42,961 bases of DNA from Parcubacteria group bacterium CG1_02_40_25 (GTDB taxonomy: Bacteria; Patescibacteriota; Minisyncoccia; Portnoybacterales; CG1-02-40-25): NCBI GenBank assembly GCA_001872305.1, contig MNWF01000023.1, positions 1 through 42,961 on the forward strand, written 5' to 3'. Under the pieces are notes generated by a model. It did not search any database and was not told the DNA's origin. It saw only the letters and a program-made list of their open reading frames with translations. A program made the position numbers and the translations under genes. This document shows, in pieces, positions 7,081 to 40,738 of the stretch. Numbering within the stretch: position 1 is the first letter of the stretch; every line of letters begins with the position of its first letter.

Positions 7081-7170
7081 AATCGGTTATTCGGTTAACG
7101 GGTTATTGTGTTAACGGGTTGTTTACTGCAAACTCGTTAACTCGTTAACCCGCTAACTGATTAACTGAAT
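7081..7170. repeat. Short-period hairpin type A between gatC and gatA
   Basis: Left arm ggttattc ggttaacg ggttattg tgttaacg ggtt. Right arm aactcgttaactcgttaacccgctaactgattaactgaa. Confidence 0.85.
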
Positions 7171-8650: not shown

Positions 8651-8720
8651 TCGTTATTTGGTTAGCAGTTAGTCGCAAAAACCTGTTAACCCGTTAATCT
8701 GTTAACTAATTAACTGAATA
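8651..8720. repeat. Short-period hairpin type A after gatA
   Basis: tcgttatttggttagcagttagtcg / aacctgttaacccgttaatctgttaactaattaactgaa. The right arm nearly matches 13186-13215. Confidence 0.75.
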
Positions 8721-11005: not shown

Positions 11006-11070
11006 GCGGCTTACAGTCTACAGCTTACGGACTACGGCTTACGCTAACCTTAGACTTTAGACCGTAGACA
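11006..11070. repeat. Short-period hairpin type B (7-nt units) between pheS and pheT
   Basis: Left arm cttacag tctacag cttacgg actacgg cttacgc. Right arm ttagact ttagacc gtagaca. Confidence 0.85.
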
Positions 11071-13133: not shown

Positions 13134-13220
13134 TTGTTAACTTTGTTGCTCGGTTAATGCGTTAACGAGTTGTGAGTTAGTTAGAAAACCTGTTAACCCG
13201 TTAACTAATTAACCTTTTAA
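13134..13220. repeat. Short-period hairpin type A between pheT and gyrB
   Basis: Left arm cggttaatgcgttaacgagttgtgagttagtt. Right arm aacctgttaacccgttaactaattaacc. Confidence 0.8.
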
Positions 13221-13229
13221 CGCTATATT

Positions 13230-15209
13230 ATGTCTGAACAAATAAATAAAAACAATAATAACAGCTATACTGCCAGCGATATCTATGTTTTAGAGGGTCT
13301 TGAGCCCGTGCGTAAACGCCCTGGCATGTATATTGGTTCCACTGGCGTTGAGGGCTTGCATCATTTAATTTGGGAAGTAGTGGACAATTCTTTAGATGAA
13401 GCAATTGGCGGTTATTGTGATGAAATTGTGGTAACATTTTCGTCTAATAATCGGATGAGCGTTCAGGATAACGGTCGGGGTATCCCAGTTGATATCCATA
13501 AACAAACCGGAAAATCCGCCTTAGAAACCGTATTAACAACTTTGCACGCGGGCGCTAAGTTTGGGGGGCAGTCATATAAAATTGCTGGTGGTTTGCATGG
13601 CGTGGGCGTGTCAGTCGTTTGCGCGCTTTCGCGTTGGCTCAAAGCAGAGGTACATCGTGATGGCGATATTTATACTCAAGAATATGAATTCGGTCGAGTA
13701 GTTAGCCCAGTAAAAAAAGTTGGTTCTACGGATCGCACTGGGACTACTATTACCTTTGAGCCAGATCCAGAAATTTTTAAAGATGCGAAATTTTCTTGGC
13801 GTCGTATTTTGGATCATTTAAGGCAGCAGTCATATCTAACGAGAGGCGTTAAAATCGTGATTCGTGATGAAAGAAAACAGTCCACGGCAAAAGACGCCGT
13901 GTCCGCGTCGAACGATGGGAATAAGTTTCCGCCTATTTTTAATTATTCTTATACTTTTTACTTTGAAGGCGGCTTGCCTTCCTTTGTGAAATATTTAAAT
14001 CAAGGCGAAAAAATTAAGCACGAAAACATTTTTCACGTGAGCGAGGAAAAAGAAGATATCGCGGTAGAGGTCGCTGTGCAATATACACAAGACATTCAGG
14101 GCAAGGAAGTAAGCTTCGCGAATAATATTCATACGGGCGAAGGCGGGATGCACCTAACGGGATTCCGAACGGCCTTAACGCGAACTCTTAATGACTACGC
14201 GCGTAAAAATAGTTATCTTAAAGAAAATGAGGAAAATCTATCGGGGGATGACGTGCGCGAAGGCCTGACCGCGGTGATTTCTGTAAAAATTAAAGAACCC
14301 CAATTTGAAGGTCAAACTAAAGCAAAGTTGGGCAATCCCGAAGCTCGGGTCGCGGTGGACGCGGTCATGGCCGAAGCATTCGCCAATTATTTAGAGCGTT
14401 TTCCGCAAGATGCCAGGGCCATTATGGAAAAGTGTTTACTGGCAGCTAAAGCAAGGCGGGCGGCTAAAGCAGCTCGAGAAACAGTGATCCGCAAGGGCGT
14501 TTTAGAAGGGTTGGCTTTGCCAGGCAAGCTGGCAGATTGTTCTTCGCGTCGGCCCGAGGAATCTGAAATTTTTATTGTTGAGGGGGATTCGGCTGGTGGC
14601 TCTACTAAACAAGCGCGTGATCGGCGTTTTCAAGCGGTGCTGCCAATTCGTGGCAAAATTTTAAATGTAGAAAAAGCCCGTTTAAATCGAGCGTTGGCGT
14701 CTAAAGAAATTCGGGCATTGGTTATTGCCATGGGCACTGCTATTGCTGAAGAATTTAATATTGCCAAGCTTCGTTATCATCGGGTGATTATTATGACTGA
14801 CGCTGACGTTGACGGCGCCCATATTCGGACATTGCTTTTAACTTTATTTTTTCGCCACTTTGAGCCGTTGATTAAGGTCGGCCATATTTATATTGCGCAA
14901 CCACCACTTTATCGCATCCAGATCGGCAGTCAAGTAGAGTATATGTATGATGATATAGCTAAAGACAAGAAGCTTGCTGGCCTAACGCAGAAATTTAATC
15001 TTCAGCGATATAAGGGTTTGGGCGAAATGAATCCCAATCAACTTTGGGAAACCACGATGGATCCCGCTAAGCGCATTCTTAAGCAGGTGACAGTTGATGA
15101 CGCCGAAGCCGCGGATCACATTTTTGATGTTTTGATGGGGTCGGAAGTTGCTCCGCGCAAAAAATTTATTCAAACGCATGCCAAGACGGTGCAGAATCTC
15201 GACGTATAG
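13230..15209 (+). CDS. gyrB: DNA gyrase subunit B
   Basis: GLEPVRKRPGMYIGST, GLHHLIWEVVDNSLDE, GGLHGVG, EGDSAGGS, PIRGKILNVE, DADVDGAHI. Confidence 0.97.
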   Translation: MSEQINKNNNNSYTASDIYVLEGLEPVRKRPGMYIGSTGVEGLHHLIWEVVDNSLDEAIGGYCDEIVVTFSSNNRMSVQDNGRGIPVDIHKQTGKSALETVLTTLHAGAKFGGQSYKIAGGLHGVGVSVVCALSRWLKAEVHRDGDIYTQEYEFGRVVSPVKKVGSTDRTGTTITFEPDPEIFKDAKFSWRRILDHLRQQSYLTRGVKIVIRDERKQSTAKDAVSASNDGNKFPPIFNYSYTFYFEGGLPSFVKYLNQGEKIKHENIFHVSEEKEDIAVEVAVQYTQDIQGKEVSFANNIHTGEGGMHLTGFRTALTRTLNDYARKNSYLKENEENLSGDDVREGLTAVISVKIKEPQFEGQTKAKLGNPEARVAVDAVMAEAFANYLERFPQDARAIMEKCLLAAKARRAAKAARETVIRKGVLEGLALPGKLADCSSRRPEESEIFIVEGDSAGGSTKQARDRRFQAVLPIRGKILNVEKARLNRALASKEIRALVIAMGTAIAEEFNIAKLRYHRVIIMTDADVDGAHIRTLLLTLFFRHFEPLIKVGHIYIAQPPLYRIQIGSQVEYMYDDIAKDKKLAGLTQKFNLQRYKGLGEMNPNQLWETTMDPAKRILKQVTVDDAEAADHIFDVLMGSEVAPRKKFIQTHAKTVQNLDV

Positions 15210-15211
15210 TG

Positions 15212-15274
15212 GCGTCTACGGTCTACGGCTTACGGCTTACGATGGCCGTTAGCGGTAGACCGTAGACCGTAGAC
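15212..15274. repeat. Short-period hairpin type B after gyrB
   Basis: Left arm gtctacg gtctacg gcttacg gcttacg. Right arm cggtaga ccgtaga ccgtagac. Confidence 0.9.
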
Positions 15275-15290
15275 TAATTACAGTTTCCCC

Positions 15291-15319
15291 TTGCATTTTT
15301 TATCGGACTGTGATATTAT
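15291..15319 (+). promoter_or_regulatory. Extended -10 sigma70-like promoter upstream of secE-nusG
   Basis: TTGCAT (15291-15296), 17-nt spacer ending in TGa, TATTAT (15314-15319). Confidence 0.55.
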
Positions 15320-15362
15320 TTAGATGTTAATTAATTCACAGCCGCGAGGCTGTTTTAAGTAA

Positions 15363-15575
15363 ATGGCGATTTCTCAAAAAGTTATCGGGCTTTTTAAAAA
15401 AATTCCTCAATTCTTAAAAGAAGTTAAGATTGAATTGAAAAAAGTTACTTGGCTAAGCCGTCAGGATGTTTGGCGTTACACTTTGATTGTGGTGTTTTTT
15501 TCTTTGGCAGTAGCCGCTTTTTTGGGGGGCCTTGATATTTTATTTGGGTTTTTAATTAAGAAATTCTTGCTGTAG
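15363..15575 (+). CDS. secE: Preprotein translocase subunit SecE
   Basis: 70 aa with FLKEVKIELKKVTWLSRQDV plus a single C-terminal TM. Conserved position before nusG. Confidence 0.8.
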   Translation: MAISQKVIGLFKKIPQFLKEVKIELKKVTWLSRQDVWRYTLIVVFFSLAVAAFLGGLDILFGFLIKKFLL

Positions 15576-15672
15576 TTTACGGACTACAGTCTACGGTCCG
15601 CGGCACGAAGTTCGTTATTTTTCGGCTGTAGCCCGTAGACCGTTGACCGTTGACTGTAGACTGTTGACCGTT
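15576..15672. repeat. Short-period hairpin type B between secE and nusG
   Basis: Left arm tttacggactacagtctacggtccg. Right arm ctgtagcccgtagaccgttgaccgttgactgtagactgttgaccgt. Confidence 0.85.
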
Positions 15673-15682
15673 AGTATCCATT

Positions 15683-16225
15683 ATGGCTAAACAAATTTCA
15701 CAAGGAAAACAATGGTATGTTTTACACACTTATTCTGGATATGAAGACACAGTGGTACACAATCTCCAACAACGTATCGAGTCTTTGGGTATGGATGATA
15801 AGATTTTTAGCGTGATGGTGCCTAAAGAAAAAAAAATCAAGATTCGCAATGGCAAGCGTAAAGTTGTTGAAGAAAAAATATATCCGGGCTATGTTTTAGT
15901 GGAAATGATTGTAACGGATGATTCTTGGTATGTGGTGCGAAATACCCCGCGGGTTACTGGTTTTGTCGGGTCGGGTACGACACCAGTGCCAGTATCTGAC
16001 GAAGAAATTGCTTTTTTGAAAAAACGAATGGGCGTTGAAGAGCCCAAATACAAGATTGATGTTGTCTTGGGCGACGCGGTTAAAATTACTGACGGGCCGT
16101 TTAAAGATTTTGACGGCAAGGTTTCTGAAATCGATGAGGCCAAAGGGAAAATTAAGGTTTTGGTCAATATTTTTGGCCGAGAAACACCAGTGGAATTGGA
16201 TTTTTTACAAGTTAAAAAAATATAA
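15683..16225 (+). CDS. nusG: Transcription termination/antitermination factor NusG
   Basis: WYVLHTYSGYE NGN start and a C-terminal KOW (GDAVKITDGPFKDFDGKV). Confidence 0.95.
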   Translation: MAKQISQGKQWYVLHTYSGYEDTVVHNLQQRIESLGMDDKIFSVMVPKEKKIKIRNGKRKVVEEKIYPGYVLVEMIVTDDSWYVVRNTPRVTGFVGSGTTPVPVSDEEIAFLKKRMGVEEPKYKIDVVLGDAVKITDGPFKDFDGKVSEIDEAKGKIKVLVNIFGRETPVELDFLQVKKI

Positions 16226-16228
16226 ATA

Positions 16229-16266
16229 TGTCGACCGTCTACCGTCTACGGTCTACAGTCTACTGC
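16229..16266. repeat. Type B left arm, immediately after the nusG stop
   Basis: tgtcgaccgtctaccgtctacggtctacagtctactgc. Confidence 0.8.
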
Positions 16267-16288
16267 TAAATATTTTAGATTTGAGAGA

Positions 16289-16621
16289 TTGCGGGTTTGG
16301 CAGTTATCAAGAGTTTTTGCTTCAAAGATATATAAAATTACTAGGAAATTTCCTAAAGATGAACTTTTTGGTTTAATATCTCAATTAAGACGCGCTGCAA
16401 TTTCAATTTTGTTGAATATAGCAGAAGGCGCTGATCGTAAATCAGATGCAGAATTTAAGAGATTTTTGAGAATCGCATTAACCTCATTGGAGGAAGTTGT
16501 TAGCGGTCTTTATATATCTTTAGATCAGGGTTTTCTTGATAGACAAGAATTTATCTCAGTTTATGAGGATGCAAGTATATTAGCGGCAAAATTGAATTCT
16601 TTGATTAATACTTTGCATTAA
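16289..16621 (+). CDS. Four-helix-bundle protein (23S rRNA intervening-sequence / S23 / Avd-like family)
   Basis: RVWQ...[34 protein letters not shown]...[11 protein letters not shown] matches my memory of the family pattern. No in-frame ATG; TTG at 16289. The family-like residues FRFERL lie upstream, running into the repeat arm. Confidence 0.75.
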
Positions 16622-16636
16622 TATTTTTTTTATCGT

Positions 16637-16669
16637 GGGCTGTAGCCTGTAGACTGTCGACTGTAGACA
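16637..16669. repeat. Type B right arm, immediately before rplK
   Basis: gggctgtagcctgtagactgtcgactgtagaca is the complementary unit type to 16229-16266. The four-helix-bundle gene lies between the two arms. Confidence 0.8.
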
Positions 16670-16674
16670 ATAAG

Positions 16675-17097
16675 ATGAAACCAATTAAAACAGTAATAAA
16701 ACTTCAAATTCCCGCTGCTAAAGCTACCCCAGCTCCTCCTGTCGGCCCTGCTTTGGGTCAACACGGTTTAAATATTCAGGAGTTTTGCATCAAATTTAAT
16801 GATGCTAGCAAAGAGATGGCCGGGGATATTATTCCAGTAGAAATTACGGTCTATGACGATCGGACTTTTGATTTCAAATTGAAAACACCGCCCGCGGCTG
16901 AGCTTTTAAAAAAAGCGGCTGGCGTGGAAAAGGGTTCAGGCGTGCCTAACAAAAAAAAGGCAGGCAAGGTAACAAAGGCGCAGATTCGCGAAATTGCCGA
17001 AAGAAAACTAGTGGATCTAAATACGACTGACATGGATCAGGCAATGCTAATTATTTCCGGTACCGCTCGTTCAATGGGACTAACCGTGATTGATTAA
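16675..17097 (+). CDS. rplK: 50S ribosomal protein L11
   Basis: [33 protein letters not shown] is the L11 hallmark. Confidence 0.95.
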
Positions 17098-17102
17098 TAT
17101 GG

Positions 17103-17200
17103 TTGTCATTGCGAGGAGCTCCGAGGATGACGAGGAGCGACGTGGCAATCTCGCGGGAGGAAGCCAGCAGGCTGATGACCCGCGTGGGAGTTGCGTGGTT
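17103..17200. repeat. TGTCAT element, beta type (gtcattgcgagg...cgtggcaatctcg)
   Basis: ttgtcattgcgaggagc...gagcgacgtggcaatctcgcgggagg... Starts 6 nt after the rplK stop. Related copies at 21588, 32402, 32741 and 36512. Confidence 0.75.
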
Positions 17201-17257
17201 TTTGTGTAGCGACAAAAAAATTCTGAACTCGGCCGTAAGACCTGTTCGGTTTTTTAA

Positions 17258-17286
17258 TTGACATAATTTTTAAGGTCTGTTAGATT
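17258..17286 (+). promoter_or_regulatory. Sigma70-like promoter for tdk-cdd
   Basis: TTGACA (17258-17263), 17-nt spacer, TAGATT (17281-17286). Confidence 0.5.
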
Positions 17287-17393
17287 TAGGGCTTGAGTTC
17301 TTTGATAAGACAATAATTAAATAATGGTTTGTTCTGATAACTATGTAGACTTGTTGGGGCTGTCTTATTTCTAACTAGGAGGAGATGATCGGT

Positions 17394-18080
17394 ATGAACC
17401 GGATAAAAATTTTTGTTGGTCCATGTGCGAGCGGTAAAACTAAGGCTGCCATCCAATTAGCGCGGACTTTAATGTCTGATGGCAAAAAGGTAGCTGCTTT
17501 TAAGGCGTTTATAGATACTCGGGGCGTTGCCGCTCGCTTAAACCATTTAATTTCTCGAGATGGCAAAGATGTTGTGGCAACTCGGGTGAAAAACGCCAGT
17601 CAAATTCTGGGTTTGCTTGATGATAGTTGTGTGTTAATTGATGGCATCTATGGCGTGCCAGAAGTTATCTTGATTGACGAGGCGCAATTTTTTGGCCGGG
17701 ATATTATTAGAGTTGTTCGCCAATTAATGTGTTGGCACAAAAGAATAATCATTACCGGCTTGGCTCGTGATTGTTTTGGCCGGCCATTCAGGTTCGTGCC
17801 ACAATTAATGGCCTTAGCCGAAAGTGGTGATGACATAGCGGTTAAGCAAGCTCTTTGCGCTGTCTGTGGCCAATTAGGAGCTACTCAGATTCAGAGATTG
17901 ATTGATGGCCAACCAGCTTCGTTGGGTAAACAAATTATCGTGGGCGAAGATCATGACTTTGGCAAGTTTGCCCAAGCAAAGATTACTTATGAACCGCGAT
18001 GCAATCTGCATCATCAGATCGCGTCAACATCGTGGTGGCGAAAACTATATTTCAGTATCCTTTATCGTTTGCAGAATTAG
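17394..18080 (+). CDS. tdk: Thymidine kinase (TK1 type)
   Basis: P-loop GPCASGKT, LIDEAQFF, GLARDCFGRPF, CAVCG...PRC zinc-site residues. The ORF track starts at 17385, but SD aggagg (17377-17382) is better spaced for the ATG at 17394. Confidence 0.8.
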   Translation: MNRIKIFVGPCASGKTKAAIQLARTLMSDGKKVAAFKAFIDTRGVAARLNHLISRDGKDVVATRVKNASQILGLLDDSCVLIDGIYGVPEVILIDEAQFFGRDIIRVVRQLMCWHKRIIITGLARDCFGRPFRFVPQLMALAESGDDIAVKQALCAVCGQLGATQIQRLIDGQPASLGKQIIVGEDHDFGKFAQAKITYEPRCNLHHQIASTSWWRKLYFSILYRLQN

Positions 18081-18092
18081 GAGGTAATTGAT

Positions 18093-18503
18093 ATGTTGCC
18101 AGATTCTTATGCTGTTATTCTCGCGGCGCGGGCAATGGAAGCGACTAAAAAGGCCTACGCGCCATATTCAAATTTTCCAGTAGGCGCGGCCGTGGCGCAT
18201 ACAAGTAAGATTGCTATTGGCTGTAATGTGGAAAATCAGTCTTTCGGTTTAACAATGTGCGCTGAAAGAGTGGCCATTTATTCCGCGATAACGACTGGCT
18301 GGCTTAACAAGACTACAAAAATTACTGCGTTGGCGGTATACGCGGTGAACCAGGATTACGTAAAACCATGCGGCGCTTGCTTGCAAGTAATTTCGGAATT
18401 TGCCGATGAGAATACGGTAATCCTTTTAATGGATAGATCTAATGGGCCTATTAAACAGTTAAAGTTTGCGGACTTATTGCCGCAGGCATTCTCTTTAGAA
18501 TAA
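18093..18503 (+). CDS. cdd: Cytidine deaminase
   Basis: CAERVAI and PCGACLQVISEF zinc-binding motifs. SD aggagg at 18078-18083 overlaps the tdk stop. Confidence 0.85.
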   Translation: MLPDSYAVILAARAMEATKKAYAPYSNFPVGAAVAHTSKIAIGCNVENQSFGLTMCAERVAIYSAITTGWLNKTTKITALAVYAVNQDYVKPCGACLQVISEFADENTVILLMDRSNGPIKQLKFADLLPQAFSLE

Positions 18504-18518
18504 AAGCAATACCAGACA

Positions 18519-18552
18519 AAGGCTCTCGTAATTATAAGAGAGCCTTTTTTTA
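18519..18552 (+). terminator. Rho-independent terminator after cdd
   Basis: Stem ggctctc (18521-18527) / gagagcc (18538-18544) followed by a T7 run. Confidence 0.8.
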
Positions 18553-18649
18553 TTGAATAAAATATGATAAGATTATGTGTGAGGCCTAAAATCAGACCTT
18601 GCGCGGAGTTTGGTGCGGGGCACGATCTTACAAATAGTGAATAATTTTT

Positions 18650-20254
18650 ATGAAATATTTTCCGACAATTGGTTTGGAAATTCACGTGGAATTAAAAACG
18701 CAGGCAAAAATGTTTTGTCAATGCGCTAATAATTTTGACGAAGCAAGCCCCAATGTTAATATCTGTCCGATTTGTATGGGGCAGCCGGGCGCCTTGCCAG
18801 CTGGCGTGAATGAAAAAGCAGCGGAGCAAACTCTAAAGATTTGTCTGGCTTTACGTTGTTCGATTTGTGAGGCGCCACAGTTTTGGCGTAAGAATTATTT
18901 TTATCCAGATTTGCCCAAGGGTTATCAGATTACTTCGCAAAAATCGCCATTTGGCGAGCGTGGTTTTGTGGAAACAAATGAAGGCCGAGTGGGTATTCAT
19001 CATATCCACCTTGAAGAAGATACGGCCCGTTTGTTGCATCCCGCGGGAGCATCTTATTCTTTAATTGATTTTAATCGGTCGGGCGTGCCGCTTCTGGAAT
19101 TAGTGAGCGAGCCAGATATCCATTCTAGCCAACAAGCGCGGGAATTTTGTCAAAAGCTACAGTTAATTTTTCGTTATTTGGGCGCCTCAGACGCGGATAT
19201 GGAAAAAGGGCAAATGAGATGCGAGGTGAACATTAGCCTACAGTCTACAGCTCACAGTCTACAGTCTACCGACAACAGCTTACAGTCAACTGTCGGCCGT
19301 AGGCTGTCCATTGTCGACCGTAGACTGTTGACCGTAGACCGGCTAGGCACCAAAGTGGAAATAAAAAATCTTAATTCTTTTAGGTCAGTTGAAAAAGCAA
19401 TTGATTACGAAATTAAACGGCAGGGCGATTTATTAGATCGCGGCGAGAAAATTATTCAGGAAACGCGCGGTTGGCATGATGCTAAGCAAATTACTTTTTC
19501 CCAGCGTGTTAAAGAAGAGGCGCATGATTATCGTTATTTTCCAGAGCCGGATTTACCGCCGTTGGATTTAACCAGTAAAAATTCACTCTGGGTGATTGAT
19601 GATATTAAAAGGCAATTGCCGGAATTGCCTGAGCAGCGTTTAACGCGTCTGCAAAAGGAACATGGGTTGCCCGTTGGCCAGGCAGAGGTCTTGGTGAGTA
19701 ATTATAAACTTGGCGATTATTTTGAAAATGTTATTTCAGAACTCCGTGCTTGGTTAAAAACTGGCATAGAGTCGATAGTGCTGAGTGGTAAAGATTTGCG
19801 CGTTGAGCAGGATGCGTCGTCGCAAACAACAGTAAACCCGATCAGATTGGCGGCCAATTATTTAATTACAGAAATTCCCAAATTATTGGTTTTGTATCAA
19901 AAAAATATGGCGGATTTAAAAATTACGCCGGAAAATTTTGCTGAATTTATTGCCTTAGTTTGTCAAGATAAAGTATCGTCTTCTGGCGCGCAGTCGTTGT
20001 TGGCAGAAATGTTTTTGACTGGCGGCGACCCATCAAATATTATTGAAGCCAAGGGGCTGGCCCAAGTCTCGGATCAATCGGCCTTGGAGCAAGCAGTTTT
20101 GGAGGTTATAAAAAATAATCCTCAGCCAGCGGCGGATTACCAGTCGGGCAATATTAATGTTTTACAATTTTTAGTCGGTCAAGTGATGAGGCAAACTCAA
20201 GGTCAGGCAAATCCGAAAATAGTACAGGAGATATTAAAACAAAAACTTATTTAG
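18650..20254 (+). CDS. gatB: Asp/Glu-tRNA(Asn/Gln) amidotransferase subunit B with a ~35-aa repeat-derived insert
   Basis: IGLEIHVEL, CPICMGQPGALP, HLEEDTA, KNLNSFRSVEKAIDYE, C-terminal GatB/YqeY tail. Insert at 19237-19340. Confidence 0.95.
   Translation: MKYFPTIGLEIHVELKTQAKMFCQCANNFDEASPNVNICPICMGQPGALPAGVNEKAAEQTLKICLALRCSICEAPQFWRKNYFYPDLPKGYQITSQKSPFGERGFVETNEGRVGIHHIHLEEDTARLLHPAGASYSLIDFNRSGVPLLELVSEPDIHSSQQAREFCQKLQLIFRYLGASDADMEKGQMRCEVNISLQSTAHSLQSTDNSLQSTVGRRLSIVDRRLLTVDRLGTKVEIKNLNSFRSVEKAIDYEIKRQGDLLDRGEKIIQETRGWHDAKQITFSQRVKEEAHDYRYFPEPDLPPLDLTSKNSLWVIDDIKRQLPELPEQRLTRLQKEHGLPVGQAEVLVSNYKLGDYFENVISELRAWLKTGIESIVLSGKDLRVEQDASSQTTVNPIRLAANYLITEIPKLLVLYQKNMADLKITPENFAEFIALVCQDKVSSSGAQSLLAEMFLTGGDPSNIIEAKGLAQVSDQSALEQAVLEVIKNNPQPAADYQSGNINVLQFLVGQVMRQTQGQANPKIVQEILKQKLI
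19237..19340. repeat. Complete type B short-period hairpin inside the gatB CDS
   Basis: Left arm cctacag tctacag ctcacag tctacag tctaccg. Right arm ccgtaggctgtccattgtcgaccgtagactgttgaccgtagacc. Translated as SLQSTAHSLQSTDNSLQSTVGRRLSIVDRRLLTVDR. Confidence 0.9.
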
Positions 20255-33116: not shown

Positions 33117-33392
33117 ATGAAGTATTTTGACTGGGACCCCCAGAAAAATAAAGAATTAAAAGAAAAACGAGGCGTAAGTTTTGAAGAAGCAATCTTAGCC
33201 ATACAGAGCGGTAATCTTTTAAATACTCGTAAAAATCCAAATCAAGAAAAGTATCCCAATCAAAAACTATTTATCATTAATATTAATAATTATGTTTTTG
33301 TGATTTTGTTTGGTGAAGACAATGAAAAGTATTTTTTAAAGACAATAATCCCAAGCCGTAAAGAAACTAAAAAATATCTTTCTAAAAAATAA
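33117..33392 (+). CDS. brnT: BrnT-family (DUF497) toxin
   Basis: FDWDPQKNKELKEKRGVSFEEA N-terminal signature. Small size and toxin-first order, with an antitoxin-like gene 10 nt downstream. Confidence 0.75.
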   Translation: MKYFDWDPQKNKELKEKRGVSFEEAILAIQSGNLLNTRKNPNQEKYPNQKLFIININNYVFVILFGEDNEKYFLKTIIPSRKETKKYLSKK

Positions 33393-33402
33393 AATAAAAA
33401 AT

Positions 33403-33684
33403 ATGAAAAACTATAAGTTAAATAAATATGAGCAAGAAATTTTAGATGCTTTTGAGGCGGGCAAACTAAAGTCCATAAAAAATGAGGAGAAGAAGAATAA
33501 AGAATATATGCTGGCGGCTAAGGATTCTTTGAATAAGACAAAGAATATCAACATTAGGATTTCAAACGGCGACTTGCAAAAAATTAAAGCCAAAGCAGTT
33601 GAAAAGGGCTTGCCCTATCAAACCTTGATTGGCTCTCTTTTGCATCAACATTTCGCGGAAGCAAGCAAAGAGCTGACCAAGTAA
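33403..33684 (+). CDS. brnA: BrnA-like antitoxin (RHH/CopG-type C-terminus)
   Basis: EQEILDAFEAGKLKS, then NINIRISNGDLQKIKAKAVEKGLPYQTLIGSLLHQH, an RHH-like segment. Confidence 0.7.
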   Translation: MKNYKLNKYEQEILDAFEAGKLKSIKNEEKKNKEYMLAAKDSLNKTKNINIRISNGDLQKIKAKAVEKGLPYQTLIGSLLHQHFAEASKELTK

Positions 33685-39391: not shown

Positions 39392-39829
39392 ATGTCATCA
39401 CGTCACTTAGCGCGATCAGTTGCTTTGCAAATTCTTTACGAATGGGATTTTAAGAATCGCGACCCAGAAAAATTGGTTGAGATTATTGAACGTAATGTTC
39501 AAGAATTTGGCGTGGCTGCGGGGTTAGAAGACGATCAATTCATTCGCACATTAGTTAGCCGTGTATTGGAAAACTTAATAAAATTAGATGAATTGATCAC
39601 GCAATACGCGCCTGATTGGCCGTTAGATCAAATTACGATAGTTGATCGTAATATTCTCCGATTAGGGCTTTATGAATTGTTATTTGGTAATCACGATGAA
39701 GTGCCCCCAAAAGTGGCGATTAACGAAGCGATTGAGTTAGCCAAATCATTTGGCGGTGAAAGTTCTGGTAAATTTGTTAATGGGGTCTTGGGAGCGGTTT
39801 ATCGGGAAATAACTCAAAAACAAGAATAA
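39392..39829 (+). CDS. nusB: Transcription antitermination factor NusB
   Basis: [30 protein letters not shown].....FVNGVL. Confidence 0.9.
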
Positions 39830-39830
39830 T

Positions 39831-39907
39831 AGGAATTAAGAATTAAGAATAAAGAATAAAGTTGCAAGATAATAGGCGCTTAATTCTTTATTCTTGATTC
39901 TCTATCC
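39831..39907. repeat. Short-period hairpin (7-nt units AATTAAG/AATAAAG) between nusB and rnc
   Basis: Left arm aattaag aattaag aataaag aataaag. Right arm cttaatt ctttatt cttgatt ct. Confidence 0.75.
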
Positions 39908-39916
39908 TTTTTTCGT

Positions 39917-40606
39917 ATGGTGAAAGATTTTTCTCTATTAGAAAAGAAGTTGGGCGTTAAGTTTAATAATCAAGATTTACTAAGGCAGGCGTTAGTCCAC
40001 CGTTCTTATTTAAATGAAAACCCAGATTGTGGTTTGGAGCATAACGAAAGAATGGAGTTTTTGGGGGACGCGGTGTTGGAGTTAGTGACCACAGAATATT
40101 TATTTAAAAATTATCCCAATCCCGAAGGCGAATTAACCGGCTATCGTTCGGCCTTAGTCAATAGTCATATGCTTTCTGAAATCGCCGTAGAACTTGGGAT
40201 TAATGATTTTTTGCTGTTGTCCCGTGGTGAAGCTCGGGATACGGGTAAGGCGCGAGAATGTATTTTGGCGAACGCTATGGAAGCAATTATTGGCGCGATG
40301 TATTTAGACGCGGAGTATAAGGTATCCGCGGATTTTATCACGCGCCATGTTTTAAAAGAACTGCCGCGCGTGCTTGAAGACAAGCTGTATGTTGATGCTA
40401 AAAGCGCTTTTCAAGAACAAGCGCAAGATCGGGTGGGCGTCACGCCGGTTTATGAGGTTTTAAAAGAGTGGGGGCCTGACCACGCTAAGCAATTTGAGAT
40501 CGGCGTATTTTTAGACAAAGAAATGGTGGCAACTGGTCAAGGTCTATCCAAGCAAGAAGCCCAACAAGAAGCAGCTCGTCGAGCGTTAGAAGTTAAAAAA
40601 TGGTAA
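39917..40606 (+). CDS. rnc: Ribonuclease III
   Basis: NERMEFLGDAVLELV catalytic signature and a C-terminal dsRBD (AKSAFQE...GQGLSKQEAQQEAARRAL). Confidence 0.95.
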   Translation: MVKDFSLLEKKLGVKFNNQDLLRQALVHRSYLNENPDCGLEHNERMEFLGDAVLELVTTEYLFKNYPNPEGELTGYRSALVNSHMLSEIAVELGINDFLLLSRGEARDTGKARECILANAMEAIIGAMYLDAEYKVSADFITRHVLKELPRVLEDKLYVDAKSAFQEQAQDRVGVTPVYEVLKEWGPDHAKQFEIGVFLDKEMVATGQGLSKQEAQQEAARRALEVKKW

Positions 40607-40611
40607 TAGAT

Positions 40612-40738
40612 AAAAATTTCAAATTACAAATATCAAATCACAAATAAATCTCAAATTCGAAGTCTCAAGACGTTTAGTCGTATTTGGAAATTGATTATTG
40701 GAATTTATTTGTTATTTGAGATTTGAGTTTTGGAATTT
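40612..40738. repeat. Short-period hairpin (7-nt units CAAAT-type) between rnc and rpsP
   Basis: Left arm tcaaatt acaaata tcaaatc acaaata aatctca aatt. Right arm atttatttgttatttgagatttgagttttggaattt. Confidence 0.7.

Follow-up and report, generated by a model that had tools for sequence, protein, structure and literature searches.

An S23p-family gene between inverted heptamer arrays at a nusG–rplK junction: a candidate intervening-sequence-type cassette outside rRNA

What is a gene of the PF05635 (S23p) family, framed by two inverted arrays of heptamers, doing between nusG and rplK in Parcubacteria group bacterium CG1_02_40_25? The question is raised by contig MNWF01000023.1, of which a stretch of 42,961 nucleotides (nt), hereafter the window, was analysed; coordinates are those of the window on its forward strand, and the contigs, loci and relatives compared with it carry the labels L001–L183. 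Intervening sequences (IVSs) and their S23p open reading frames (ORFs) have reportedly been known since the early 1990s. The account that we regard as probable, though far from certain, is that the PF05635 gene and its two arrays make up one unit, a selfish cassette of the IVS type that occupies the nusG–rplK spacer and not an rRNA helix. The initial annotation of this locus had left two alternatives, a gene inserted into an existing hairpin and arms that are the termini of a cassette; the evidence favours arms that belong to the cassette, because inverted arrays of period 7 or 8 flank the family across metagenomic copies, cultured cyanobacteria and Bacteroidota and a true 23S rRNA IVS, and because paralogues differ in their units.

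The resident gene and its arms

The genes secE, nusG, an open frame and rplK follow one another on the forward strand (Table 1). The PF05635 domain of the open frame (16283–16600) scores 118.8 bits against a cut-off of 33.8 and covers profile positions 1–106 of 106, TIGR02436 scores 115.9 bits (cut-off 24), and PF05635 is the sole Pfam match of the frame at E <= 0.01, with no match to a tyrosine transposase of the IS200/IS605 type. The solved S23p protein XCC0516 (PDB 2GSC) is matched by phmmer at E = 7e-20, and the AlphaFold2 monomer model (pLDDT 96.8) consists of four long helices that align with 2GSC at a TM score of 0.95, with 2RLD at 0.8 and with bAvd (4DWL) at 0.80. Foldseek gives a probability of 1.0 for 4DWL and for ribonucleoprotein structures of diversity-generating retroelements (DGRs), while the sequence identity between S23p and Avd is ~10% and a sequence search gives no match. 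The profile matches and the predicted structure agree in pointing to a genuine member of the S23p/four-helix-bundle family with an Avd-like fold, as had been proposed, and the positions initially assigned to the nusG stop, both arms, the 110-codon gene and the rplK start all hold. The published motif of the 23S_rRNA_IVP family, GxxRxxxSxxxNxxE (PMC3936711), is present as R..S...N..E, with Q instead of G at motif position 1; across 28 homologues R42, N50, E53 and G54 are invariant and S46 is nearly so.

The cassette site is an intercistronic spacer that lies outside any 16S or 23S rRNA gene. No rRNA was found in the window, where an Rfam search at the gathering threshold yielded nothing, and at E <= 1 nothing relevant appeared over 15150–17450; a promoter and terminator scan of the same interval gave counts not above those of shuffled sequences, with no signal within the cassette, and tblastn found no second S23 copy in the window. 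A DGR context for the gene was rejected, as the window contains no reverse transcriptase according to Pfam scans of its ORFs of at least 90 amino acids (aa), template and variable repeats not having been specifically searched.

The left array, of consensus GTCKACN (16230–16264), lies directly 3' of the nusG stop, and the right array ends 5 nt before the rplK ATG; Tandem Repeats Finder reports period-7 arrays at 16230–16263 (4.9 copies) and 16640–16668 (4.1 copies). The arms are 83% complementary over 30 nt (16237–16266 against 16639–16668), with a duplex energy of -38.7 kcal/mol, while each folds poorly alone (-9.7 and -8.0 kcal/mol). The minimum-energy fold of 16215–16685 (471 nt) pairs both arms at z = -4.8, with none of 100 shuffles as good. 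Shuffle controls on the fold, the flank period and the unit complementarity rule out a chance origin of the arms.

Although the open frame contains no Met codon, and TTG at 16289 is its only canonical in-frame start (110 codons), the absence of an in-frame ATG, correctly noted at the outset, has a cause that had been missed. In the closest S23p homologues (~75% identical), the protein starts with MTTDYRLQTTA-[KR]YFRFE, that is, with the ATG followed by the translated left arm, and the window has a positional counterpart of that codon in ATG 16228, which begins 3 nt past the nusG stop. The ATG precedes the codons for K/R-Y-F by 33 nt in L089, L091 and L092, by 31 nt in L093 and by 40 nt in the window, where it is displaced from the reading frame of its in-frame relatives by exactly one surplus heptamer. 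Read in the S23p frame, the left arm of the window encodes RPSTVYGLQSTA, which matches the repeat-derived N-terminal extension of close homologues. The codons for KYFRFERL (16268–16291) lie just 3' of the arm; the earlier claim that family-like residues run up into the arm in the frame of nusG was therefore right about the frame and wrong about the residues.

The left arm varies within the population. Contig L183, from another assembly, is the same as the window along 1,921 nt but for an additional GTCGACC unit, and the arm therefore changes by whole heptamers (5 or 6 units); neither allele puts the ATG in frame. Gene calls of 110, 131 and 151 aa, the last from L183, occur in the 90% cluster of the window S23p protein; all seven cluster members are out of frame, their spacing exceeding the in-frame one by 7 or 14 nt, and no ON allele was seen among them. 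Gene callers evidently mis-start such genes, one locus being annotated as 110, 131 or 151 aa. Many S23p homologues place their ATG 3' of the array. In relatives at the same junction the ATG shares bases with the stop codon of nusG (ATGA in L092 and L093, TAATG in L172), which suggests translational coupling of the S23p gene to nusG; the window copy, judged from its reading frames, appears to be translationally crippled.

Inverted short-period arrays across the PF05635 family

The arrays are a trait of the family. In a survey of 67–68 non-redundant metagenomic PF05635 copies, 40–75% identical to the window query, the best flank period was 7 in 52 of 67 copies upstream and 54 of 67 downstream, compared with 17 and 33 of the 185 control positions taken elsewhere on the same contigs, and it was 8 in a further nine copies on each side. 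In 29 of 68 copies the left and right units are reverse complements of each other, one mismatch being allowed, as opposed to 2.75% in the cross-locus control. At least 24 distinct heptamer or octamer units occur among the 68 copies, and paralogues on one contig usually carry different units. Periodicity and unit complementarity were used in place of duplex energy, which over flanks of 90–120 nt gave no separation between S23 flanks and random pairs (medians of -43.0 and -34.6 kcal/mol); a generic detector of array pairs proved too strict, mis-paired arrays across nusG and was used only qualitatively.

The same architecture recurs in cultured bacteria of several phyla. The PF05635 gene of Nostoc punctiforme has five copies of TCAGGAG on its left and CTCCTGA on its right, inverted arrays also surround the gene in Riemerella anatipestifer and Nostoc ATCC 53789, and in Picosynechococcus (L179) the gene and its inverted arrays stand between cmr2 and cmr3. 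In Azospirillum lipoferum, an S23p ORF lies between GAGGACG and CGTCCTC arrays inside the 23S rRNA gene (large-subunit model, 490 bits), and this locus is a true classical 23S rRNA IVS. The 'cas-associated' status of the family may simply reflect insertion of the cassette into operons, and annotators may over-read the neighbourhood associations of PF05635 genes. These results suggest inverted period-7 arrays as a simple structural signature for the whole PF05635 family, one that rRNA IVSs, 'cas-associated' 23S_rRNA_IVP genes, cyanobacterial heptamer repeats and the intercistronic hairpins of the candidate phyla radiation (CPR) have in common.

Arrays of the same unit were also sought elsewhere in 17 S23 loci, and four matches were found against 0.01 per locus in controls, which is too few to tell whether arms are specific to the host or to the cassette. 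Further arrays of the same type occur beyond the cassette in L001, L097, L098 and L099, hosts of S23a, the form found in the window. In L098 and L103, whose NusG is 55–57% identical to that of the window, the S23 genes are 61–64% identical to the window's; the arms of L098 clearly have the GTCTAC/GACTAC unit, and those of L103 are similar and more degenerate.

Turnover of the junction in related genomes

An interloper between nusG and rplK had been thought unusual, and in this clade it is not rare. Among 80 species representatives whose NusG is 72–82% identical to that of the window, 77 nusG–rplK spacers were measurable: 27 are at most 20 nt long, many of the others contain gene-less hairpins of short-period tandem repeats with species-specific units, and about 7 of the 77 species have some gene at the junction, to which a suspect scaffold (L059, with N runs and much higher G+C) may be added. 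A PF05635 gene occupies this place in 0 of the 80 representatives. In three species (L040:3538–4012, L052:1133–1660 and L064:3538–4043) the resident is a GxxExxY gene of ~130–150 aa (PD-(D/E)XK, PF13366/TIGR04256) in the loop of a repeat-array hairpin with the respective units CACGAAT, TACGAAT and CACAGAT, and a second family of small genes therefore shares the niche; two further pairs have a CarS-like or an SPFH-type gene. A search for GxxExxY homologues on plasmids gave two matches, neither with clear arrays, and the arm rule is not extended to that family.

Closer relatives present several states of the site. L173, with a NusG 99.4% identical to that of the window (nusG 89% at the nucleotide level), is by NusG protein the nearest relative found to lack the gene and has a nusG–rplK spacer of 9 nt, so that the gene deserves the name of interloper; its secE–nusG spacer measures 6 nt, no hairpin follows gyrB, and all three type B hairpins of the stretch, built like the left arm of the cassette, are absent. 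A comparison of spacers had been proposed in search of an empty site with an intact hairpin, and no empty type B hairpin was found at nusG–rplK. L172 (NusG 98.3% identical) carries an S23 allele 64–66% identical to the window's, with different heptamers, and has hairpins at the same three sites with the units GCATACA, GCTTACA and GCTAACA. On metagenomic contigs, S23 genes stand at the junction in L092/L094 (73% identical, in frame, with the ATG overlapping the nusG stop), in L095, which is the same as L172 (66% identical), and in L093 (73% identical), a pseudogene in which the ATG is displaced by 2 nt and the codon of the invariant Trp is a stop. At 94% and 93% identity, L169 has a plain 25-bp hairpin and L170 another array hairpin at the junction. 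The presence of the gene is thus sporadic, as is that of IVSs: it is missing from L173 and the 80 representatives, and other alleles take its place in L171 and L172.

The latter two document the replacement of one allele by another. L171, whose NusG is likewise at least 98% identical to that of the window, equals L172 over 2,506 nt upstream, then differs by six synonymous changes in the last 40 nt of nusG, and has octamer arms, AATTGTTT/CAATTTAA, around a PF05635 gene that shares 36% identity with the window's, whereas L172 has heptamer arms; the rplK genes that follow are identical except for one codon. The swapped segment (L171:2507–3000, L172:2507–2945) is bounded by breakpoints within the final 40 nt of nusG and within the opening codons of rplK, and the entire junction was thus exchanged through recombination in the genes on either side.

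Between the window and L172, synonymous divergence (dS) is 0.48 in nusG and 1.35 in S23, so that the two S23 alleles must have diverged before their hosts did. The ratio of nonsynonymous to synonymous divergence (omega) of 0.08–0.19 indicates that the S23p protein family is under purifying selection, though individual copies at the junction decay, and the S23 gene of L103 has no start codon. The nusG–rplK locus is thereby a natural series at one site, comprising an empty state, three alleles, a slipped start codon and a pseudogene; as these states occur in genomes that differ by a few percent, turnover is directly measurable.

Two observations concern the surroundings of the junction. In L098, L101 and L103 (NusG 48–57% identical), an S23 gene lies just upstream of secE–nusG–rplK on the opposite strand, which hints at a recurrent association of S23 genes with the neighbourhood of this operon. 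The spacers at 15214–15671 of the window are orthologous to those at 1497–2000 of L171/L172 and 1700–2000 of L173, with flanks ~91% identical; the hairpins differ in unit (at the gyrB-side site L171 and L172 have GCATACA) and L173 has none, so that either the units have changed in concert or the same spacers have been colonised independently more than once.

Interpretation, comparable systems and other features of the window

On the cassette account, the element would be transcribed within the secE–nusG–rplK message, and its ~29-bp arm stem would probably be cut by host RNase III, as happens in rRNA IVSs; such a cut would set the S23p RNA free and leave nusG and rplK on separate messages, presumably harming neither. 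In relatives, where the start overlaps the nusG stop, S23p would be translated by coupling to nusG termination and the left arm read as a 10-residue N-terminal extension. The window copy would have lost this coupling, and may be silent and starting to decay or may have weak initiation at TTG 16289. Should the stems prove to be RNase III sites, the elements would amount to operon-splitting punctuation in very small genomes.

Several observations weigh against this account. The cassette arms are generic type B arrays without mutual specificity: the initial annotation had made its proposal depend on arms more complementary to each other than random type B arms, and the left arm pairs equally well or better elsewhere, with the right arms at 15624–15672 (-43.4 kcal/mol), 19296–19341 (-40.7) and 15244–15276 (-40.2); arm specificity is therefore no argument either way. 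Since no target-site duplication, transposase or integrase was found at the cassette, primary mobility is unproven; the arms are inverted, and no duplication is apparent against the empty site of L173, the spacers being too diverged for base-by-base alignment. Allelic exchange via flanking homology is the only movement seen, and gene-less hairpins of the cassette's unit are common in the window genome, which leaves room for insertion into an existing hairpin. The stems of 50 family members have 51 G:U and 44 A:C mismatches, and with no G:U excess, selection on the sense RNA does not seem to account by itself for the complementarity. The arms are also incomplete or differently arranged in some cultured hosts: a right array accompanies the Stanieria gene, whose left arm is partial, the genes of Nostoc PCC 7120 and Calothrix have a right arm only, and on a Pseudanabaena galeata plasmid (L177) the gene lies between cas6 and cas4 with direct arrays instead of inverted ones (13 copies of CTAAAAG upstream, ~10 of CCAAAAG downstream). 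Cutting by RNase III is argued from analogy with rRNA IVSs. In-frame type B hairpins lie within gatB (18650–20254; hairpin 19235–19345), where ~32 residues, LQSTAHSLQSTDNSLQSTVGRRLSIVDRRLLTVDRLG, are added within the catalytic-domain profile and the 273 positions of GatB_N spread across 305 residues, and within a prepilin peptidase gene (847–1719; hairpin 1337–1390); cleavage would be harmful there, and not every stem can therefore be an efficient RNase III substrate.

The order of events could be the reverse, with repeat hairpins a normal intercistronic feature that serves processing, stability or termination and the gene dropped later into a loop. At least nine other spacers of the window have such hairpins, five of them of type B, and the gene-less hairpins and GxxExxY residents of related species at nusG–rplK, the unit family that the arms of the window and of L172 share with the neighbouring gene-less hairpins of each genome, and the lack of mutual specificity all speak for this order. 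It nevertheless seems unlikely to us, given that the arrays accompany PF05635 in rRNA, in CRISPR–cas operons and in organisms not known as hairpin-rich, that units differ between paralogues of the same contig, that the incoming gene of L171 arrived with octamer arms unlike the neighbouring hairpins, that the related S23 genes of the distant hosts L098 and L103 carry the same unit or a degenerate likeness of it, and that no type B hairpin without the gene was found at this junction. Nor does a phase-variable contingency gene, in which the array after ATG 16228 would be a slippage switch that is on with 4 or 7 units and off with 5 or 6, explain the locus well. A unit length that is not a multiple of three, an array between the start codon and the conserved gene body, the coexistence of 5- and 6-unit alleles in otherwise identical DNA, in-frame versions in related species and the varying copy number at the same place in Coxiella strains (PMC4990558) are in keeping with such a switch; yet seven of seven cluster members are off, the imperfect units would lower slippage rates, many homologues start past the array, where copy number cannot alter the frame, and sister copies decay by other routes, L093 through a 2-nt deletion and a stop at Trp and L103 through lack of a start, all of which makes the switch highly improbable.

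A third explanation takes S23p for a trans-acting helper that binds, maintains or spreads the gene-less hairpins of its unit, in the manner of REPINs, hairpins formed by repetitive extragenic palindromes (REPs), and RAYTs, the REP-associated tyrosine transposases. The repeat that flanks the gene in inverted copies is indeed found elsewhere in the genome as scattered gene-less hairpins, the unit differs from one paralogue to the next, the window combines S23a with GTCTACN hairpins and L172 combines S23b with GCWWACN hairpins at the same three spacers while L173 has neither, the protein family is under purifying selection, and the fold is shared with Avd, which binds nucleic acids as a pentamer and acts together with a reverse transcriptase. 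This is quite improbable all the same: the family has no known catalytic activity, hairpins persist although the window and L093 copies are crippled, most loci outside the CPR lack further same-unit arrays in the few kilobases scanned, the co-occurrence involves three genomes and short contigs, and neither transposition intermediates nor target duplications were found. Of wider reach, and in our estimate rather improbable, is the idea that PF05635 genes with their arrays, perhaps joined by GxxExxY genes, form an unrecognised pan-bacterial class of mobile hairpin cassettes, of which rRNA IVSs were the first-noticed members and the gene-less hairpins, those in spacers as well as those in frame within genes, are non-autonomous derivatives, with a pentameric S23p recognising the array at about one heptamer per subunit so as to maintain or spread it, much as RAYTs do with REPINs but with an Avd-like protein at its base.

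Comparable to the cassette are the 23S IVSs with S23p ORFs of Coxiella burnetii, Leptospira and Brucella (helix 45), which belong to the same PF05635 family and likewise hold the ORF in the loop of an extended stem formed by complementary flanks. In Coxiella the S23p ORF is poorly translated and decaying, RNase III cleaves the stem that borders the IVS, and the ATG is preceded by tandem GACAGAT heptamers, of which there are 3 or 2 depending on the strain (PMC4990558); the 5' heptamers of the window vary in the same way (5 against 6), and a poor or lost ORF start, with decay of the ORF in some lineages, is a further likeness. The window cassette differs in standing in an intercistronic spacer of a protein operon and not in the loop of an rRNA helix, in a left arm that is, or ancestrally was, translated and coupled to an upstream stop, and in that excision is presumed. 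ORFs of the 23S_rRNA_IVP type have been recorded in rRNA insertions of the CPR (10.1101/2024.02.27.582315) and between cas genes (PMC3936711). REPIN–RAYT systems (PMC3116915, PMC3337134) resemble the locus in that a single gene is flanked by an inverted short repeat that is dispersed as gene-less intergenic hairpins and differs in type between genomes; S23p, by contrast, is a four-helix bundle without transposase motifs and not a tyrosine transposase of the IS200/IS605 type, and its repeats are tandem arrays of 7–8 nt in place of a single ~20-nt palindrome, with no mobility intermediates known. The DGR accessory protein Avd shares the fold of S23p, with the low identity given above and no reverse transcriptase in the annotated ORFs of the window. 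Phase-variation loci of Haemophilus and Neisseria also place a repeat whose unit is not a multiple of three between start codon and gene body, and have alleles that differ in copy number; in the window the repeats are imperfect and one arm of a long hairpin, no ON allele is seen, and many S23p homologues start downstream of the array.

Rickettsia palindromic elements (RPEs) are hairpin-forming dispersed repeats that also occur in frame within coding genes, and the in-frame hairpins in gatB and the prepilin peptidase gene recall them. Short tandemly repeated repetitive (STRR) sequences are the tandem heptamer repeats of Nostoc and Anabaena, and arrays of this kind flank the Nostoc PF05635 genes; to our knowledge, neither RPE nor STRR repeats have been connected with a resident gene family. 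That IVSs contain S23p ORFs, and that the heptamers of one such IVS vary, is already established. Within a limited search of the literature, no description was found of the cassette in intercistronic mRNA junctions, of inverted period-7 arrays throughout the family or of strain-level allelic turnover at a fixed site, and for earlier work that connects PF05635/TIGR02436 genes to heptamer arrays, or that treats CPR intergenic repeat hairpins, the Coxiella paper was all that came to light.

Most intercistronic spacers of the window are taken up by hairpins of inverted 7–8-nt tandem arrays that often abut stop or start codons, with the units GTTAACGA, AACCTGTT, GTCTACN, AAGAATA and AAATCAC; the positions of several are given in Table 1, together with the features of the cassette.

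Table 1. Coordinates of the cassette, its host genes and repeat hairpins of the window
Feature	Position	Strand	Description
secE	15363–15575	+	
nusG	15683–16225	+	upstream host gene; TAA stop 16223–16225; PF02357 and KOW matches
Displaced start codon	16228–16269	+	ATG 16228; 13-codon frame MSTVYRLRSTVYC, then stop
Left arm (type B)	16229–16266	+	five imperfect heptamers: GTCGACC GTCTACC GTCTACG GTCTACA GTCTACT
S23p/four-helix-bundle open frame	16226–16621	+	131 codons and stop (16619–16621); same frame as nusG
Right arm (inverted)	16637–16669	+	about four heptamers: GCTGTAG CCTGTAG ACTGTCG ACTGTAG AC
rplK (L11)	16675–17097	+	downstream host gene; PF03946 and PF00298 matches
Gene-less type B hairpin, directly after gyrB	15214–15275		-41.9 kcal/mol, z = -6.8; absent in L173
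Gene-less type B hairpin, secE–nusG spacer	15575–15671		-39.4 kcal/mol, z = -3.5; absent from the orthologous spacer of L173
Repeat hairpin spacers	776–846, 7085–7166, 8680–8713, 11007–11070, 13187–13221		
rnc (RNase III)	39917–40606	+	host gene; PF14622, PF00636 and dsrm matches; repeat hairpins on both sides
Repeat hairpins either side of rnc	39822–39914, 40614–40732		

Downstream of the cassette, in 17098–20254, rplK is followed by a 287-nt non-coding stretch and then by genes for thymidine kinase and cytidine deaminase and by gatB, with no rplA next to it; ribosomal protein L1 is reportedly lacking in some Parcubacteria, which fits this arrangement. The region at 17103–17215 is a GC-rich structured element with a terminator-like site (17180–17198) and no Rfam match. 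Its core, GGAAGCCAGCAGGCTGAYGACCCGCG, recurs in the secE–nusG spacer of L169, and similar GTCATTGCGAGG...CGAAGCAATC elements, another dispersed repeat family, fill the nusG–rplK spacers of L024 and L050. Elsewhere in the window, at 33117–33684, a BrnT-like toxin and a CopG-like antitoxin form a pair that adjoins a PolB-exonuclease-like gene.

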